DNA of 7,448 bases from a virus. Taxonomy: Duplodnaviria > Heunggongvirae > Uroviricota > Caudoviricetes. Of this stretch, positions 1-7,448 are shown piece by piece (position 1 is the stretch's first letter; each line of letters starts with the position of its first letter). Location of the stretch: the IMG/VR virus record IMGVR_UViG_2645728091_000018, one strand, 5' to 3'. Below the pieces are notes generated by a model that saw only the letters and a list, made by a program, of their open reading frames with translations, was not told the origin of the DNA and ran no database searches. The translations under genes and the position numbers were made by a program.

Positions 1-296
1 CTATTTATCGGAAGGTTTATCCTGCTGCGGTTTGTTGTTGACCATATCGCACAACATAGAGAGCAGCATTAACCGTACTTTAAAGGGAGAATGACTAAAC
101 ACGCGCATACACCTCTTGAACTCATTCATAAGACCTCCTGACTTGCTAATCCCATCGATCCTTGAGGGATGATTGCATTACATACAGATATAGCACAGGC
201 TATATTATAAAGCATCAACTATCTACGAAAAACAATAACTTACAGTGTTATCAATAAGTTACGTTAGTTAATATCTGTGAGTATTCGGCAGTATTT
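1..296. other. Putative att arm / prophage-host junction region downstream of int; AT-rich, contains an IHF-consensus site; exact core not identifiable
   Basis: Lies immediately 3' of the integrase gene, where P2/186-type phages carry attP/attL. Region about 160..296 is AT-rich. 249..261 TATCAATAAGTTA matches the IHF consensus WATCAANNNNTTR. No tRNA-like T-loop or CCA end seen. Confidence 0.3.
249..261 (+). promoter_or_regulatory. Candidate IHF binding site (TATCAATAAGTTA)
   Basis: Exact match to WATCAANNNNTTR read directly from the sequence; position is consistent with an integrase arm region. A single consensus hit in AT-rich DNA is weak evidence alone. Confidence 0.3.
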
Positions 297-1917: not shown

Positions 1918-2036
1918 GAAAGTATTACCTTGAAATATTGCGCAAAGTGAGTTTAAACTCCGCTTTGTAGGTTTAAGTGAATATTGACAGTTACAGCCCT
2001 GTATTGCCGTACAGGTTAACTTATGGAGTTTGCCTC
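1918..2036. promoter_or_regulatory. Lysis-lysogeny switch region (expected convergent pR/pL promoters and operators)
   Basis: Intergenic region between divergently oriented cI and apl. Contains TTGACA at 1984..1989 and an operator-like palindrome CCTGTA-N6-TACAGG (1998..2015) with an extra TACAG at 1992..1996. I could not pair a convincing -10 with any -35, so promoter positions are not called. Confidence 0.5.
1999..2014. promoter_or_regulatory. Palindromic operator candidate CTGTATTGCCGTACAG (fits LexA core CTGT-N8-ACAG; may instead be a CI/Apl operator)
   Basis: Read directly: CTGT at 1999..2002, ACAG at 2011..2014. Flanking AT/GT partly match the SOS-box consensus, but the GC-rich centre is atypical. 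Confidence 0.3.
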
Positions 2037-2288: not shown

Positions 2289-2792
2289 ATGTTTGATTAC
2301 CAGACCTCTAAACATGCGCACTTTGATGCGGCTTGCCGAGCATTTGCAATTGAGCACAATCTGGAAGATGTGGCCGCTGCCGTTGGTATGAGGCCGCAGA
2401 TCCTGCGCAACAAACTGAACCCAGCGCAACCGCACCGCCTGACCTGTGATGAGCTTTTGGCTATCACGGATTACACAGAAGATGCGCGTTTACTTGATGG
2501 GATGTTAGGTCAGATTAACTGCCTTCCATCCGTGCCGGTAAACAATGCTACTGAAGCCAACATGCAACTGTGTGCACTTAGCGCCACTGCATGTGTGGGC
2601 GCGATTGCTGGGGAAGCCGTATCAACTGGTCATATGACCGCAGCCCGCCGTACTCAAATTCTGGATCGCGCCCGCGATGCAATCCGTAGCTTATCCGTGC
2701 TGGCTTATACAGTTGAAAGCCGTATTCACTCTGCGCCGGTTCTGGCTGCTGCGGTGGATCTGGTCACAACCAACGCTACCGGCCTGATGTGA
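2289..2792 (+). CDS. cII: CII-like lysogeny-establishment regulator (186 CII family)
   Basis: 167 aa; N-terminus MFDYQTSKHAHFDAACRAF...LRNKLNPAQPH closely resembles 186 CII as I remember it. GGGAGAGG RBS 8 nt upstream; position after apl matches 186 gene order. Confidence 0.85.
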   Translation: MFDYQTSKHAHFDAACRAFAIEHNLEDVAAAVGMRPQILRNKLNPAQPHRLTCDELLAITDYTEDARLLDGMLGQINCLPSVPVNNATEANMQLCALSATACVGAIAGEAVSTGHMTAARRTQILDRARDAIRSLSVLAYTVESRIHSAPVLAAAVDLVTTNATGLM

Positions 2793-2801
2793 GGGAACAC
2801 C

Positions 2802-2975
2802 ATGAAAGCGTTTGTCACTTACCTGAAAAAAGAATCACCAGCCATGCAGTTGCCGAGTGGTTCAACGGGCTGGATAGAACTGCCGAACGGTCAGCGCTGG
2901 AACCCTGGCCACATGTACAAATTCAATGGCCAGCAGCCGCGCCGCCCGTGGTGGTGTCGTCTGATGGGGTTATAG
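2802..2975 (+). CDS. Small hypothetical protein (57 aa), not in the ORF track; occupies the 186 fil-like position
   Basis: ATG at 2802 with GAGGGA RBS 5 nt upstream, overlapping the cII stop. Translation MKAFVTYLKKESPAMQLPSGSTGWIELPNGQRWNPGHMYKFNGQQPRRPWWCRLMGL, stop TAG 2973..2975. Codon usage is host-typical, whereas the overlapping track frame (2789..2983) has rare AGG/AGA/ATA codons and a GTG start with no SD. Confidence 0.5.
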   Translation: MKAFVTYLKKESPAMQLPSGSTGWIELPNGQRWNPGHMYKFNGQQPRRPWWCRLMGL

Positions 2976-2983
2976 GGGGCGTT

Positions 2984-3412
2984 ATGGCGATTAGCCAGGA
3001 ACAGCAAAAGCGCGGGCTGGAGCATTTAAAACAGATCCGCCGCAAATACTTCAGCGAAAGCAGTGAGGCCGCTGAATGGTGGGACAACTTAACACCAGAG
3101 TGGCGGGGTGTAGTGCTTCATGCTGCTGCGGTTACATCTGGTACTGGGGCATTTAAAGCCCACTTAAGCAAGTGCTGCTGGCGGGAGCTTTATGAACGCC
3201 TGGGCTATCGGGACATGATTCAACTGCGCCAGGGCATTTCACGGGCGCGGTTAACGTTTGAAGGTTTCGGCAGTTTACGTGACAGCGATTTTTCAAAGCG
3301 CACCGCGAACCGCCCGATCAAAAAGGCACATCCAATTTATAGCAGTAGCGGGGTGCAGATGGTGATCGCGCCTCATATCGTCCATAAGTTCCAGCAACAG
3401 GGGAATCACTAA
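2984..3412 (+). CDS. Hypothetical phage early protein (142 aa)
   Basis: ATG at 2984 (MAISQEQQKRGLEHL...) with a GGGGG run just upstream; same frame as the distal part of the track ORF 2789..3412. Stop TAA overlaps the next start (TAATG). No recognisable catalytic motif. Confidence 0.6.
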   Translation: MAISQEQQKRGLEHLKQIRRKYFSESSEAAEWWDNLTPEWRGVVLHAAAVTSGTGAFKAHLSKCCWRELYERLGYRDMIQLRQGISRARLTFEGFGSLRDSDFSKRTANRPIKKAHPIYSSSGVQMVIAPHIVHKFQQQGNH

Positions 3413-3813
3413 TGACCATTATTTCCGTTGAGGGTAAATCGTTGGGGGCTGAACTGGCTGTGTGGGGTGTCCCGCATAACTACGCTGTAGCGTTTGCAGC
3501 GAAAAGTACCAGTAAAAATGGCCGCATCGCTTTGCATCCGTTCTTCTTCAATGACACTGAACACATGACAAATCCGCGTCACTGGCTGGCTATCAATGCC
3601 GCTTTCTGGTGCTGCGTGTATCGCGAAGCGGAAAGCAAAGAAGCCCAGATAGAAGCGCTGGCGGGGATTCGTGCAATTTTCTATACAGCCGGGGCGCTGG
3701 GTGTTGGCGAGATAAAAGCGCTGATCCAGGAGTGGTGGCGGACAACCTATGAGCTTCACCTGATTCCGGCACCGAACTACTCAGCCGCCACAGTACAACC
3801 CACTTTTCACTAA
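3412..3813 (+). CDS. Hypothetical phage early protein (133 aa)
   Basis: ATG at 3412 overlapping the upstream stop, AGGGGAA 7 nt upstream; intact 133-aa ORF. No recognisable motif; function unknown. Confidence 0.6.
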   Translation: MTIISVEGKSLGAELAVWGVPHNYAVAFAAKSTSKNGRIALHPFFFNDTEHMTNPRHWLAINAAFWCCVYREAESKEAQIEALAGIRAIFYTAGALGVGEIKALIQEWWRTTYELHLIPAPNYSAATVQPTFH

Positions 3814-3830
3814 TTAACAGCCTGAATTTT

Positions 3831-3866
3831 TTGGCCACGGTTCAAGTGGCCGGGGATTCTTTTGCC
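3831..3866 (+). terminator. GC-rich hairpin followed by a U-rich tract; possible weak intra-operon terminator or attenuator
   Basis: GGCCAC (3833..3838), 7-nt loop, GTGGCC (3846..3851), then GGGGATTCTTTTG. Sits in the only sizeable intergenic gap (3814..3880) of the early operon. Stem is short and the T-run is interrupted. Confidence 0.25.
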
Positions 3867-3880
3867 TTAAGGAAACCAAA

Positions 3881-4114
3881 ATGCACATGACACGTCAGGA
3901 TTTACCCGCAACAAAATCAGGCACCGACCTGCTGGCCATGCTCACCAAAGCCACGCAGGAAGGTAAAGCCGCAGCTGCTGATCTGTGTTCCACCCGTCTG
4001 GATAAGTTAGCCACTCATGCGGCCAATGAAGGTTTAAGCGCAACGGAAATCGTTGAGTTAATCCGCGAAGAAGCCGCAGCGATTTGCAGCAAAGGAGGTG
4101 CGGCATGGAATTGA
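3881..4114 (+). CDS. Small hypothetical Ala-rich helical protein (77 aa); possibly like the small orf80-type proteins of P2-like phages
   Basis: ATG at 3881 with AAGGAAA upstream; stop overlaps the start of the exonuclease gene by 10 nt. Family assignment is memory-based and unverified. Confidence 0.5.
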   Translation: MHMTRQDLPATKSGTDLLAMLTKATQEGKAAAADLCSTRLDKLATHAANEGLSATEIVELIREEAAAICSKGGAAWN

Positions 4115-4701
4115 AAACTAAGAAATTGCAGTCTTCTATCAGTCAGCTAGCACAACAGTGGCTTGACGATGATCGCCTATTTATTGATACCGAAACCACG
4201 GGGTTGGGTGATGATGCAGAAATAGTAGAAATATGCATCATTGATAGCCATGGATTTATTCTGCTCAACACGCTTGTAAAACCCACTAAGCCTATTCCTG
4301 ATGAAGCAATTGCCATTCATGGGATCACAAATGAAATGGTCGCTTTTGCGCCGGCCTGGACTGATATATGCGGGGCAGCGGAGGAACTATTTCGGCGCTT
4401 TGGGTTTGTTATCTATAACGCCGATTTTGATCTCCGGTTAATTCGTCAGACCTACGCATTGAATGGAAGGCCTTCTGAAGGTGTGCCATGGATGCTTGCT
4501 GCTAATTCTGTTTGCGCAATGAAACTTTATGCAGAGTATCGCGGCGAGCCGGGAAAATATCACGGTTATAAATGGCATAAATTAGTTGACGCTGCTGCGC
4601 ATGAAGGAGTTGTGATCGAGGGGCAGGCACACCGTGCTTTAGCTGATTGCAAAATGACATTAGGTGTCATCAAAGCTTTAGCGCAAGGCGGTGCAAAATG
4701 A
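4105..4701 (+). CDS. DnaQ-like 3'-5' exonuclease (DEDDh family)
   Basis: Exo I motif FIDTETTGL, Exo II YNADFDL, Exo III HRALADC (H-x4-D) all present in the translation. ATG at 4105 with AAGGAGGTG RBS 5 nt upstream; the track start at 4084 is TTG. Stop overlaps the next start (ATGA). Confidence 0.88.
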
Positions 4702-5027
4702 CAATCAAAACCCACACGATAAAGATTGCGCCAAAATACCTTGATGCTGTGGTGGCTGGCCAGAAAAAGGCCGAGCTGCGTAAAAACGATCGCGGGTATA
4801 AAACCGGTGATGTTCTTTCACTGTGCGAGTGGAAGCACGGAAAATACACCGGGAGAGAGTGGGCGGCGGTTATCACCCATGTTTTGCCTGTAAATGAAAT
4901 TATCGCTGATACCGAAAACTGGGCGGTTTTGTCCATCCGTTCACTGTCGCCGCTTGAAGTGCTGGAATACATCATTTCAAACGGTGTCACTGAGGCGTTA
5001 GCAGGCGGAGGTCAATATGGCCGTTAA
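4698..5027 (+). CDS. ASCH / PUA-like domain protein (DUF3850-like), 109 aa
   Basis: [40 protein letters not shown]... matches the N-terminal pattern I recall for DUF3850/ASCH proteins. ATG at 4698 overlaps the exonuclease stop; the track start at 4647 would give a 55-nt overlap and is less likely. Confidence 0.7.
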
Positions 5028-5877
5028 AACTCCGCTTAAATGGGTGGGCAGCAAAGCCCGCCTTATGCCTAAGCTGCGTTCGCACCTTCCAGAAGGTAAA
5101 CGCCTGGTTGAACCGTTCGCAGGTTCCTGCGCCGTCATGATGAATACGGATTATGACGAGTATCTGATCGCAGATGTGAATCCTGATCTGGTTAATCTTT
5201 ATAAGGCGATGGCGTATCACACTGATGTGCTGCTGAATGAGGTGGAGATCCTGTTTTCTGCCGGTTCGTTAGGTGATGAAGAAAGCCGTGCCGTTTTCTA
5301 TTACGCAGTGCGTGATGCTTTCAATCTTTCTGGTGGTAAGGCTGGTTCTGAATCCGTTGAAAATGCTGCGCGTTTCCTGTACCTGAATCGCCACTGCTTC
5401 AATGGCCTGTGCCGGTATAACCGCCGAGGCCAGTTCAACGTCCCGTTCGGTAAGTACAAAAAGCCTTATTTCCCCGCTGATGAAATCCGCGCCTTTGCTG
5501 AAAAAGCGAAACGCGCAACGTTCATTACTGCCCACTATTCAGAAACACTCGATTTGGTTCGGGACGGGAATGACGTTGTTTACTGTGATCCGCCTTATCT
5601 GACTGATACCGCCAATTTCACCGCTTACCATGAACGTGGCTTTTCGCACATGGATCAGGGGCGGCTGGCGCGTAAGCTGCGCCGTCTGGCTGAACGTGGG
5701 ATTCCGGTTGTCGCGTCAAACAGCGATCTGGAAATGGTTCATTACCTGTACGCCGGATTTGAAGCCGTAAAGGTAAATGCGCCGCGTAGTGTTGGTGCGG
5801 CAGCTGCAAGCCCGAAAATGGCGGCGGAGCTGATTCTTAAATGGCCTTTACCGGCGACTCATGAGGCCAGCGCATGA
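5017..5877 (+). CDS. dam: Dam-family DNA N6-adenine methyltransferase (probably GATC-specific)
   Basis: Motif [10 protein letters not shown] and motif IV VYCDPPY, plus long colinear similarity to E. coli Dam as I recall it ([52 protein letters not shown]). GGAGGT RBS 5 nt upstream; start overlaps the ASCH gene by 11 nt. Confidence 0.93.
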
Positions 5878-7448
5878 CGCTGGCAATAAACGAACAATGC
5901 TATGCCGTTGATGCCTGGAGGCGGGAAACCTTCGCGCCAGGCACACCGGCAGACGCGACTATCACAGAACGCCGCCTGTGGGCTGTAAACCCGCAGGATT
6001 ATGAATGGCGATCCCGGTACCTGCATGAGATACCCGACTGGTTAGCCGGGTATTTTGGCCGTCGTTACGAAAAGCTTTTTTCTGGCCGTGACGGGCGTCG
6101 CCGTGCCAATACATTCCTGCGCAAAACAATCGGTGAGAATGTATTGCCACGTCTGCGCAAAGTGGCTGCGCGTTACTCGCTGGCCGCTGATGCTGCTGAT
6201 CTTCCTTTTGGTAAGTCGCTGGAGCACTTGCCGTCACTAGACCGTCCTGATCTTAAAAAACTGGCTGGCCAGGTATCTGGCTGGATTTCCCAGTCACTTT
6301 ATGACTTCACCGAACAGTTTGATTCCGGCACTGACGACGCCAGAGAGCTGCATCGCCGCACCCTGGAATCTTACCGCCATCTTTGTGCCTGTTGCCTGAT
6401 GCTGAATAACCAGCCGCCGTACTGGGCTGAACATGAGGCCAATGAAGGTCAACTGGAAATGCGTAAGGCGGAATCCGGGATACTGCGCATGATGGCGCCG
6501 GAATGGTGGTACCTGCGTCTTAAACGTGCGCGTGATACGCAGCGCGAGCACATGGCCATTGCGGTGGGACAGGTGCAAAAAGCGGCCAGCGCTTATGTAT
6601 CCCGCAAAACACTGGGCGAATGGATAGACCAGAAAAAGCGGAATCTGGAGTTCTTTAAAAAGTTTGATCTGCTGAATGATGAGGGGATGCGCATTGCACT
6701 GGACAGCATGGTGCACCGCAGCGTTGCAAATCCGGCGATCCGTCGCTGCGAACTAATGGTAAGAATGCGAGGGTTTGAAGATATGGCCAATGAAGAAGGG
6801 CTGGCCGGTGAGTTTTACACCATCACCGCGCCATCACGTTTCCACGCAGTACACAGCAAAGGTGGCTTTGTATCGCAATGGGATGGATGTACGCCGCAGG
6901 ATACCCAGCGCTATTTATGCGGCGTATGGGCAAAAGCACGCGCAGCGATCTCGCGTGCGGGTATTCATGTCTTTGGGTTTCGGGTTGTTGAGCCTCACCA
7001 TGACGGGACACCGCACTGGCATATGTTGCTTTTTATGCGTCCGCAGGACGTGGACACGGTACGCGATATTCTTTGCTATCACGCCAGAATTACCGATTCT
7101 GAAGAACTGCAATCTGAAAAGGCGCTGAAGGCGCGTTTTCATGTTGAAGCTATCGATCCCGCCAAAGGTTCGGCCACGGGCTACATCGCGAAATACATTT
7201 CAAAAAATATTGATGGTTTTGCGCTGGATGGTGAGCAGGACGAAGAAACCGGCGAAAACCTGCGTGATATGGCTAAGTCCGTTTCCGCGTGGGCTTCACG
7301 CTGGCGTATTCGCCAGTTTCAGCAGATTGGTGGTGCGCCGGTAACCGTCTGGCGTGAGCTGCGTCGGTTGCGGGATCAGGTACTGACAGATCGCAGAATG
7401 GATGCGGTTCTGGCCGCTGCTGATGTCGGGGACTGGGCTGCATATTGA
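5874..7448 (+). CDS. A: Rolling-circle replication initiator endonuclease (P2 gpA / 186 A family)
   Basis: HUH motif in EPHHDGTPHWHMLLF and paired active-site tyrosines in GYIAKYISKN (Y437, Y441; Y-x3-Y spacing as in P2 A). ATG overlaps the dam stop (ATGA). ORF ends with TGA exactly at the window edge (524 aa). Confidence 0.88.
   Translation: MTLAINEQCYAVDAWRRETFAPGTPADATITERRLWAVNPQDYEWRSRYLHEIPDWLAGYFGRRYEKLFSGRDGRRRANTFLRKTIGENVLPRLRKVAARYSLAADAADLPFGKSLEHLPSLDRPDLKKLAGQVSGWISQSLYDFTEQFDSGTDDARELHRRTLESYRHLCACCLMLNNQPPYWAEHEANEGQLEMRKAESGILRMMAPEWWYLRLKRARDTQREHMAIAVGQVQKAASAYVSRKTLGEWIDQKKRNLEFFKKFDLLNDEGMRIALDSMVHRSVANPAIRRCELMVRMRGFEDMANEEGLAGEFYTITAPSRFHAVHSKGGFVSQWDGCTPQDTQRYLCGVWAKARAAISRAGIHVFGFRVVEPHHDGTPHWHMLLFMRPQDVDTVRDILCYHARITDSEELQSEKALKARFHVEAIDPAKGSATGYIAKYISKNIDGFALDGEQDEETGENLRDMAKSVSAWASRWRIRQFQQIGGAPVTVWRELRRLRDQVLTDRRMDAVLAAADVGDWAAY

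Follow-up and report, generated by a model that had tools for sequence, protein, structure and literature searches.

Do the three genes that precede replication gene A in this prophage, coding for an exonuclease, an ASCH-domain protein and a Dam-family methyltransferase, constitute one dedicated cassette, or are they ordinary accessory genes that came to lie side by side? The preliminary description favoured the former and considered an anti-restriction or self-marking module or a replication-fidelity accessory. The DNA stretch analysed (IMG/VR record IMGVR_UViG_2645728091_000018, 7,448 nucleotides, hereafter the window) corresponds to the early arm of a Peduoviridae prophage that resembles 186 and adjoins E. 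coli mntS. In our assessment, with a probability of roughly three in four for the explanation as a whole, positions 4105-5877 lie in the distal portion of an early lytic operon under CI repression, in a 186-like E. coli prophage near Quadragintavirus, and the three genes are ordinary accessory genes of 186/Fels-2-like prophages, independently gained and lost, and no novel fixed cassette. It should be added that the arrangement itself is already known. RefSeq phages and E. coli genomes list the three products under the names exonuclease, DUF3850 or ‘RNA-binding protein’ and DNA adenine methylase, and none of the gene families is new.

Membership of the window in the early lytic operon of 186-like Peduoviridae follows from its synteny, int-cI / apl-cII-fil-...-DUF2732-...-A, with structural genes beyond (Table 1); in IMG/VR the window was also identified as UViG 2648501498_000023. 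The pR-like promoter is placed between cI and the apl/cox-like gene and would head the operon. The terminator-like hairpin sits in the 67-nt gap ahead of the DUF2732 gene, at the same place as tR1 of phage 186, which according to the 186 GenBank record lies between dhr and orf79 and is anti-terminated in lytic growth. The DUF2732 gene opens a chain of overlapping genes and ends with the TGA at 4112-4114; Orf79 of 186 matches the same family (PF10809). At the far end of the chain, gene A corresponds to genes annotated in relatives as ‘replication endonuclease’. A terminator inside the 5' end of A similar to tM1 of 186 was not found by scanning, and no RNA families were found in the window. Across 3800-6000, internal repeats were limited to short matches at chance level, except for the 3' tails of the exonuclease and ASCH genes, which resemble each other.

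Table 1. Features of the early operon in the window, with coordinates, strand and supporting evidence.
Feature	Coordinates	Strand	Evidence
pR-like sigma-70 promoter, TTGAAA-18-TAAACT	1930..1959	+	Consensus scan; position matches pR in the 186 record; putative function
Terminator-like GC hairpin, then TTCTTTTG	3828..3856	+	Scan; putative function
DUF2732 gene, homologue of 186 Orf79	3881..4114	+	PF10809, 46.9 bits
DEDDh (DnaQ/ExoX-like) 3'-5' exonuclease, 198 aa, orthologue of 186 Orf81	4105..4701	+	PF00929, 67 bits
DUF3850/ASCH (PUA-like) protein, 109 aa	4698..5027	+	PF12961, 81 bits; PF04266, 25 bits
Dam-family (D12 class) N6-adenine DNA methyltransferase, 286 aa, orphan, predicted GATC-specific	5017..5877	+	PF02086, 229 bits
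Replication gene A, rolling-circle initiator, 5' part	5874..7448, runs off the window	+	PF05840 (Phage_GPA), 353 bits

Rechecking of the ORF coordinates reproduced the previously described pattern of overlaps. The exonuclease start (ATG 4105) overlaps the DUF2732 gene by 10 nt, the ASCH start (ATG 4698) overlaps the exonuclease end (4701) as ATGA, the Dam start (ATG 5017) lies 11 nt inside the ASCH gene with its stop TAA at 5025-5027, and the start of gene A (ATG 5874) again forms ATGA with the Dam end (5877). Every start is preceded by a Shine-Dalgarno-like run located in the 3' tail of the gene before it (GGAGG 4094-4098, AAGGCGG 4685-4691, GGAGG 5007-5011 and TGAGG 5862-5866), and identical starts were called by the RefSeq annotators in a 95%-identical E. 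coli prophage. Furthermore, the design of the junctions is conserved, with GGnGGTGCnnn directly followed by ATG at the starts of the exonuclease, ASCH, Dam and DUF5405 genes. Co-translation, which had been regarded as almost certain, is plausible as translational coupling: the 186 GenBank record (U32222) notes that orf84 is coupled to A and that translation of A requires translation of the preceding gene to its end. At every junction between modules an overlapping stop/start is combined with a Shine-Dalgarno run in the upstream tail, so ribosomes would move along the chain as far as gene A, and module swaps would leave expression of A intact.

The three domain assignments made from the letters were borne out by Pfam matches above the cut-offs. 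The exonuclease matched RNase_T (PF00929) at 67.2 bits (cut-off 24) along positions 1-162 of the 164-position profile, and retains the catalytic residues of Exo I (DxE), Exo II (D) and Exo III (Hx4D), namely D28 and E30 (DTETTG), D109 (NADFD) and H176 and D181 (HRALAD). It shares 71.4% amino acid identity with 186 Orf81. Its best solved relatives in the PDB sequence search were ExoX (4fzx, E 2e-9) and Pol III epsilon; T4 DexA, considered as a further relative, did not appear in that search and serves as a precedent for phage exonuclease roles only. The GC content of the gene is 45%, versus 52-54% in the flanks. The protein appears to be a stand-alone enzyme of the DnaQ/ExoX type, which probably trims DNA 3' ends in phage replication or recombination, or scavenges DNA.

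The second protein scored 81.3 bits against DUF3850 (PF12961; cut-off 22.9) and 25.3 bits against ASCH (PF04266; cut-off 21.2). The GxKxxExR octapeptide is present as G21-Q-K23-K-A-E26-L-R28; among 22 homologues E26 and R28 are invariant, and G21 and K23 are at least 90% conserved. Its sequence matched 3iuw (E 2e-8), and the AF2 model (mean pLDDT 74) displays a PUA-like beta-barrel fold for which Foldseek returned 3iuw as the top match (E 2e-7, target-normalised TM-score 0.89), followed by PH0355, YqfB, ZmASCH and TRIP4. With the ASCH superfamily (3iuw, YqfB, TthASCH, TRIP4) the protein thus shares the barrel and the GxKxxExR (‘GKER’) octapeptide, whereas it differs in being a DUF3850-type member made up of a minimal core (~80 residues) plus a C-terminal helix. 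In other GKER-type ASCH proteins, the Lys and Glu are essential for tRNA ac4C deacetylation. This minimal GKER-type domain may be described as a putative binder of modified bases or N4-acylcytidine hydrolase. Fusions of DUF3850 to ParB-CTPase domains are common in other phages.

The third protein gave 229.4 bits against MethyltransfD12 (PF02086; cut-off 22) and 273.3 against the ‘dam’ model TIGR00571 (cut-off 114.85), and aligned with EcoDam (PDB 2g1p) at E 1e-62 and 45% identity over 257 residues. As in EcoDam, it has the alpha-class D12 fold, the catalytic DPPY (D191-P-P-Y194) and the GATC-recognition residues K9, N120, L122, R124, P134 and Y138 (roles in PMC4417163). In contrast to EcoDam it is phage-borne and encoded in a lytic operon, Y119 is replaced by the still aromatic F, and the SAM-binding FxGxG reads F34-A-G36-S-C38, with the F and first G kept and the second G changed to C. 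The cut-off of the host Dam equivalog (NCBIfam PRK10904) was not reached (266.4 bits vs 441). Since DPPY and the GATC-contact residues of EcoDam are kept, we predict from the sequence an orphan GATC methylase made during lytic growth.

A restriction partner or membership in a defence system was considered for this methyltransferase and rejected. The cognate endonuclease gene expected of a type II restriction-modification system does not adjoin it, its neighbours being the ASCH gene and gene A, and PADLOC returned only ‘orphan methyltransferase’ as the best match for Dam and a generic CRISPR-associated DEDDh model. Avoidance of GATC as a sign of restriction pressure was likewise discarded, as the window holds 35 sites versus 22.5 +/- 4.4 expected, a mild enrichment. 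Produced in lytic growth only, the enzyme would most likely keep the rapidly replicating rolling-circle phage DNA fully GATC-methylated, which could be protective against restriction enzymes that cut at GATC (in non-Dam hosts) and also against host MutH and SeqA, which act on under-methylated DNA. Its selective benefit is conjectural because the host already has Dam, and according to PMC7556043 it is still poorly understood what Dam enzymes do for phages.

To place the trio among related phages, 211 gene-A-anchored IMG/VR loci were surveyed; the frequencies are approximate because the best 80 loci per query, out of >580, were kept. Within this sample, Dam was present in 111 loci (53%), ASCH in 39 (18%), Exo in 28 (13%), DUF5405 in 40 and the PAPS-reductase-like gene in 17, and by lineage Dam was found in 0/75 loci of the 186 lineage versus 74/75 of the Fels-2 lineage. 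Most loci of the Fels-2 and window lineages have a Dam gene directly 5' of A. As regards conservation of the trio in 186/P2-like loci, which bears on its status as a unit, all three genes were found together in only 5 of the 211 loci (2.4%; best 80 per query), and the single genes vary separately. Gene order is also variable, with Exo-ASCH-Dam, ASCH-Exo-Dam, Exo-Dam-ASCH and Exo-DUF5405-ASCH all occurring. Among complete E. coli genomes the trio was detected in ~7 of 5426, and a DUF2732 gene abutting Dam in ~20.

Near-isogenic relatives, with CII at least 98% and gpA 93-99% identical, differ in slot content alone. One of them (L106) has Dam only, two (L110 and L113) have ASCH and Dam, one (L115) has Exo and Dam, and one (L151) has Dam and the PAPS-reductase-like gene, while L105 carries different alleles of Exo (51%) and ASCH (71%). 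The genes are therefore best regarded as independently assorting modules of a variable slot. Such a slot would be bounded by the conserved DUF2732 gene on one side and replication gene A on the other, and small non-essential accessory genes are probably exchanged there one gene at a time: TraR zinc finger, DEDDh exonuclease, DUF5405, DUF3850/ASCH, Dam and the PAPS-reductase-like gene. The phage of the window would simply happen to hold Exo, ASCH and Dam in it.

One alternative is that the trio is a single writer/reader/nuclease unit, in which Dam would act as writer on phage DNA, ASCH as reader of m6A or some other modified base, and the exonuclease would be steered to or from marked DNA, in the manner of an anti-restriction or self/non-self module. 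The tight overlaps fit such a unit, as does recurrence of the trio in three gpA lineages (L105; L170/L171; L274/L275), and Exo and ASCH co-occur above expectation (Mantel-Haenszel odds ratio 3.9, pooled Fisher p = 0.001, a statistic that ignores phylogeny). ASCH domains have moreover been predicted to be m6A readers, being fused to or co-operonic with N6A methyltransferases (PMC4738411), but this role is experimentally unconfirmed (PMC11037411). Dam and ASCH show no co-occurrence signal (Mantel-Haenszel odds ratio 1.03, 211 loci), and ASCH occurs without any phage Dam in 19 of 75 loci of the 186 lineage. Together with the variable gene order, the occurrence of every single and pairwise combination in near-isogenic phages and the existing annotation of the trio, these data speak against the unit suggested in the preliminary description, and we consider it quite unlikely. 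A replication-fidelity accessory, with Exo replacing or supplementing Pol III epsilon or ExoX in gene-A-driven rolling-circle replication and Dam providing strand marks for methyl-directed mismatch repair, would agree with the closest solved relatives of the exonuclease and with the location of the genes immediately 5' of A in the same operon. It is nevertheless very unlikely: only the N-terminal half of the exonuclease aligns to epsilon and ExoX, and its scores fall far below the NCBIfam equivalog cut-offs (epsilon PRK06309, 52.5 vs 245; ExoX PRK07983, 51.9 vs 202; TIGR01406, 43.6 vs 222.7). Moreover, 186 Orf81 is annotated as ‘not essential’ in the GenBank record, Exo is present in only 13% of the related loci, and the association of Dam with Exo is not significant (211 loci, best 80 per query).

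Phage and prophage methyltransferases are in general able to change host methylomes, and the prophage Dam, with its partners, might accordingly be expressed in the lysogen and re-programme host methylation or gene expression. Such lysogenic conversion is highly improbable here, as the genes follow the CI-controlled pR-like promoter and the terminator-like hairpin in a rightward operon, a consensus scan found no promoter-like sites within 3800-6300, GATC is already methylated by the E. coli host, and the homologous region of 186 is annotated as an early lytic operon. The excess of Exo-ASCH co-occurrence leaves room for a functional link. The slot ahead of A in 186/Fels-2-like phages could be a hotspot devoted to genes for nucleic-acid modification or counter-defence, in which Exo and DUF3850/ASCH (plus DUF5405 in the 186 lineage) would act as a pair on modified nucleic acid; for example, a modified base might be recognised or de-acylated by ASCH and the product processed by the exonuclease. 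This extension is speculative and unlikely, although, if true, the pairing would give DUF3850 its first biological role.

Returning to the reading of independently exchanged accessory genes, near-isogenic prophages that differ by Exo, ASCH, Dam or the PAPS-reductase-like gene represent a natural experiment. Comparison of such sets could clarify why a phage should encode a Dam of its own when the host is already Dam-positive, and which functions DUF3850 and exonucleases of the 186 Orf81 type serve. Literature searches found no functional study of the Exo-ASCH-Dam trio, in agreement with the earlier statement that it lacks functional characterisation; nothing specific was found on 186 orf81/orf84 or the Fels-2 Dam either, and statements on the 186 genes rest on the GenBank notes.

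Comparison with known phages completes the picture. Phage 186 (U32222) shares the layout int, cI, apl, cII, fil, terminator, DUF2732, accessory genes and A, with overlapping genes, annotated coupling into A and the orthologous DEDDh exonuclease (Orf81) in the same position. Its order is Orf79 (DUF2732), Orf80 (TraR), Orf81 (exonuclease), Orf83 (DUF5405), Orf84 (PAPS-reductase) and A; it thus differs from the window by the TraR zinc-finger gene, by DUF5405 in place of DUF3850/ASCH and by the PAPS-reductase-like gene in place of Dam, and its accessory genes Orf79-Orf84 are all annotated as ‘not essential’ in the GenBank record. In the P2-type phage L-413C, a DUF3850 gene (orf91) lies just 3' of A. 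The earlier remark that P2 and 186 do not carry the trio here is thus correct insofar as neither 186 nor L-413C has all three genes, but 186 does have the exonuclease in place, and with DUF3850 found downstream of A in L-413C, insertion as a single cassette does not hold. The closest counterparts are Escherichia phages ESSI2_ev040, ev015 and ev129 (Peduoviridae, Quadragintavirus) and the E. coli AHB29 prophage, which have DUF2732-Exo-DUF3850-Dam-A with the same overlaps and differ by alleles only. Nucleotide identity is 92.5% to ev040 over 3800-5846 and 95% to AHB29 over the whole window, and ev129 combines a divergent exonuclease allele (52% amino acid identity) with the same ASCH (97%) and Dam (94%). 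Peduoviridae of the Fels-2/SEN8/SopEPhi type also have an orphan Dam-family methyltransferase immediately 5' of gene A, but it is only ~52% identical, the TraR zinc-finger gene is present and ASCH is usually absent (10/75 loci); in SEN8, with the order DUF2732-TraR-Exo-Dam-A, a 71%-identical exonuclease lies just before Dam.

Three gene-A-anchored scans of IMG/VR were performed (with a window-type alignment, 186 gpA and SEN8 gpA), and the 4.5 kb upstream of A was scored with a tblastn panel in the 211 loci that had enough upstream sequence; these came from the best 80 loci per query of more than 580, so frequencies are approximate. Dam was detected in 111 loci, DUF5405 in 40, ASCH in 39, the exonuclease in 28 (13%) and a PAPS-reductase-like gene in 17. 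Conservation of the exonuclease-ASCH-Dam trio, checked on these loci, was that of a minority combination, with all three genes present jointly in five (2.4%). Dam tracked the gpA lineage (0/75 loci of the 186 type, 74/75 of the Fels-2 type), and the exonuclease and ASCH genes occurred sporadically across all three gpA lineages. No association was found between Dam and ASCH over the 211 loci (Mantel-Haenszel OR 1.03); a mild association was seen for exonuclease and ASCH (OR 3.9, pooled Fisher p = 0.001, a statistic that ignores shared ancestry).

The slot, i.e. the variable stretch between the DUF2732 gene and A, showed the orders Exo-ASCH-Dam, ASCH-Exo-Dam, Exo-Dam-ASCH and Exo-DUF5405-ASCH. 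In near-isogenic relatives of the window (CII at least 98% and gpA 93–99% identical), differences were confined to the slot, which read DUF2732-Dam-A in locus L106, DUF2732-ASCH-Dam-A in L110 and L113, DUF2732-Exo-Dam-A in L115 and DUF2732-Dam-PAPS-A in L151. L105, with CII and DUF2732 100% and gpA 99% identical, carries exonuclease and ASCH alleles of only 51% (amino acids) and 71% identity to those of the window, which points to allele replacement within an otherwise identical operon. Among 5426 complete E. coli genomes the trio occurred in about seven, and DUF2732 abutted Dam in about 20 close relatives. GC content of the exonuclease gene was 45% vs 52–54% in its flanks. Taken together, the slot-only differences, varied orders, survey counts and exonuclease GC fit an exchange of single-gene modules in a variable slot, rather than one inserted unit. 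The preliminary description had the trio as one cassette inserted into the early replication operon; the sub-combinations in near-isogenic phages, the varying order and the Dam-ASCH odds ratio argue against this. With about 2% of loci, the trio represents a minority gene set within a mosaic slot, and no distinct system.

It should be added that cI is likewise low in GC (42%), and that the slot ends 5' of A with Dam, the PAPS-reductase-like gene (186 Orf84, PF01507) or both. In the 186 lineage (L185–L264), DUF5405 accompanies the exonuclease in 14/14 cases and ASCH in 18/19; either shared lineage or a link in function may lie behind this.

Slot genes of different families start right after a conserved GGnGGTGCnnn in the tail of the upstream gene, with ATG-N6-AAAAC running across the upstream stop codon. 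The window starts are alike (ATGGAATTGAAAACT for the exonuclease, ATGACAATCAAAACC for ASCH, ATGGCCGTTAAAACT for Dam); Dam of L106 starts with ATGGCAGTAAAAACT behind the same DUF2732 tail, and ASCH of L110 with ATGGCAGTAAAAATT. The first 13–15 nt of unrelated exonuclease, ASCH and Dam genes in different relatives are nearly alike, part of this similarity being forced by the embedded stop codons. The exonuclease and ASCH 3' tails are also similar (repeat D7). Such joints would be portable, keeping translational coupling and offering possible microhomology for the gain, loss and swapping of modules.

Features of the window and of related loci
Sequence	Feature	Position	Strand or context
Window	mntS	1–129	minus
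Window	P2-type integrase	297–1346	minus
Window	CI repressor	1339–1917	minus
Window	pR-like promoter	1930–1959	upstream of Dam
Window	apl/cox-like gene		first in rightward operon, before cII
Window	cII	2289–2792	rightward operon
Window	fil-like gene	2802–2975	rightward operon; PHROG cell-division inhibitor in relatives
Window	unknown ORF	2984–3412	rightward operon; relatives annotate 142-aa gene starting 2984
Window	unknown ORF	3412–3813	rightward operon
Window	terminator-like GC-rich hairpin, then T-run	3828–3856	gap 5' of DUF2732 gene, position of 186 tR1
Window	DUF2732 gene	3881–4114	rightward operon, then trio
Window	exonuclease	4105–4701	trio
Window	ASCH	4698–5027	trio
Window	Dam	5017–5877	trio
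Window	gene A	5874 to window end	rightward operon
Window	joints	4091–4119, 4685–4712, 5004–5031
L106	joint	4436–4464
L110	joint	4422–4450
L105	replaced alleles	4120–4985	vs window 4105–5027
L003 (phage 186)	slot end	4244–5248	5' of A
L151	slot end	4979–5977	5' of A
L148	slot end	4997–5998	5' of A
L005 (L-413C, P2-type)	DUF3850/ASCH + DUF7415 gene (orf91)	4001–4453	ATGA overlap with gene A 3' end

IMG/VR contig UViG_2648501498_000023 has the same sequence as the window (7448 bp). The integrase-side flank of the window has a match in 5422 of the 5426 complete E. coli genomes, which identifies the host as E. coli or something very closely related. The prophage is integrated beside mntS (window 1–296); the order in E. 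coli AHB29 is ompX, opgE, mntS, prophage integrase. A long mechanical ORF at 2789–3412 is probably no gene, since relatives annotate the fil-like gene, in a different frame, and the 142-aa gene instead.

The coordinates and overlaps first described for the trio proved exact (10 nt at 4105–4114, ATGA at 4698–4701, 11 nt at 5017–5027, ATGA at 5874–5877), and a Shine-Dalgarno-like run precedes each start within the tail of the gene upstream. The domain assignments likewise hold: PF00929 (67 bits) with the complete DEDDh set D28, E30, D109, H176 and D181, PF12961 (81) with PF04266 (25), and PF02086 (229); PF05840 scored 353. By sequence the exonuclease is a stand-alone DEDDh enzyme, whose best solved relatives, ExoX and Pol III epsilon, match its N-terminal half only. 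A replication-fidelity role is possible but unsupported: the protein reaches no NCBIfam equivalog cut-off, the phage 186 record lists its orthologue as non-essential, and the gene occurs in just 13% of related loci.

The ASCH protein belongs to DUF3850; its AF2 model (pLDDT 74) superposes best on 3iuw (TM 0.89, normalised to target), followed by other ASCH structures, and the GxKxxExR motif is kept. ASCH domains beside N6A methyltransferases were predicted to read m6A (PMC4738411), which is still unconfirmed (PMC11037411). GKER-type ASCH proteins outside DUF3850 were recently shown to deacetylate tRNA ac4C, for which the Lys and Glu are indispensable (bioRxiv 10.64898/2026.02.27.708502). In other phages DUF3850 is often fused to ParB-CTPase folds. 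The independent assortment of modules and the missing Dam-ASCH association argue against the trio as a writer/reader/nuclease unit, although the exonuclease-ASCH association keeps a weaker version alive. Natural near-isogenic variants make the roles of these accessory genes, that of DUF3850 included, testable.

Dam shares 45% identity with E. coli Dam across 257 residues. DPPY is intact, and of the residues by which EcoDam reads GATC (PMC4417163), K9, N120, L122, R124, P134 and Y138 are kept and Y119 is replaced by F. The protein scores above the TIGR00571 'dam' cut-off and below the host-Dam equivalog cut-off, and no endonuclease partner was found in the window or by PADLOC; an orphan GATC methylase is predicted. 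Given the pR-like promoter and hairpin upstream, with no promoter-like site found nearer to Dam, its expression is probably confined to lytic growth; with the hairpin at the tR1 position, the Exo-ASCH-Dam-A chain would need read-through or anti-termination. Lysogenic conversion by these genes is unlikely from their position in the operon. GATC is mildly enriched in the window, not avoided (35 sites vs 22.5 ± 4.4 expected; 1 of 200 shuffles reached 35). Most likely, Dam would serve to keep rolling-circle DNA, which is made quickly, in a fully methylated state and thereby shielded both from GATC-cutting restriction in other hosts and from MutH and SeqA; what phage Dam enzymes do is still poorly understood (PMC7556043).

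In phage 186 (U32222) the order is Orf79 (DUF2732), Orf80 (TraR/DksA zinc finger), Orf81 (PF00929 exonuclease, 71% identical to that of the window), Orf83 (DUF5405), Orf84 (PAPS-reductase-like) and A. Its record labels Orf79 to Orf84 'not essential', places terminator tR1 immediately 5' of Orf79, and states that translation of A appears to need translation to the end of orf84. SEN8 (Felsduovirus) has DUF2732, TraR, Exo, Dam and A, and Dam lies immediately upstream of A in Fels-2, SopEPhi, RE2010, ESSI-2 and many Klebsiella P2-like phages. P2-type L-413C has none of the three genes upstream of A; in this lineage an ASCH gene is linked to A from the other side, an arrangement found in 0/240 loci of 186, Fels-2 or window type. 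That P2 and 186 lack the trio here is correct only in a narrow sense, as 186 has the exonuclease, the P2 type an ASCH gene beside A, and Dam is common at this position.

The AHB29 prophage is 95% identical across the whole window, and NCBI annotates it, with identical overlaps, as DUF2732, 3'-5' exonuclease, DUF3850 protein, DNA adenine methylase and replication endonuclease. Escherichia phages ESSI2_ev040 and ev015 (Peduoviridae, Quadragintavirus), 92.5% identical over window 3800–5846, are annotated alike, and the arrangement is thus already in curated public records. All parts of the finding are real, yet annotations in public genomes already cover each of them. The gene families are known ones, there is ample documentation of phage Dam enzymes, and the exonuclease orthologue of 186 went on record when the genome of that phage was deposited.
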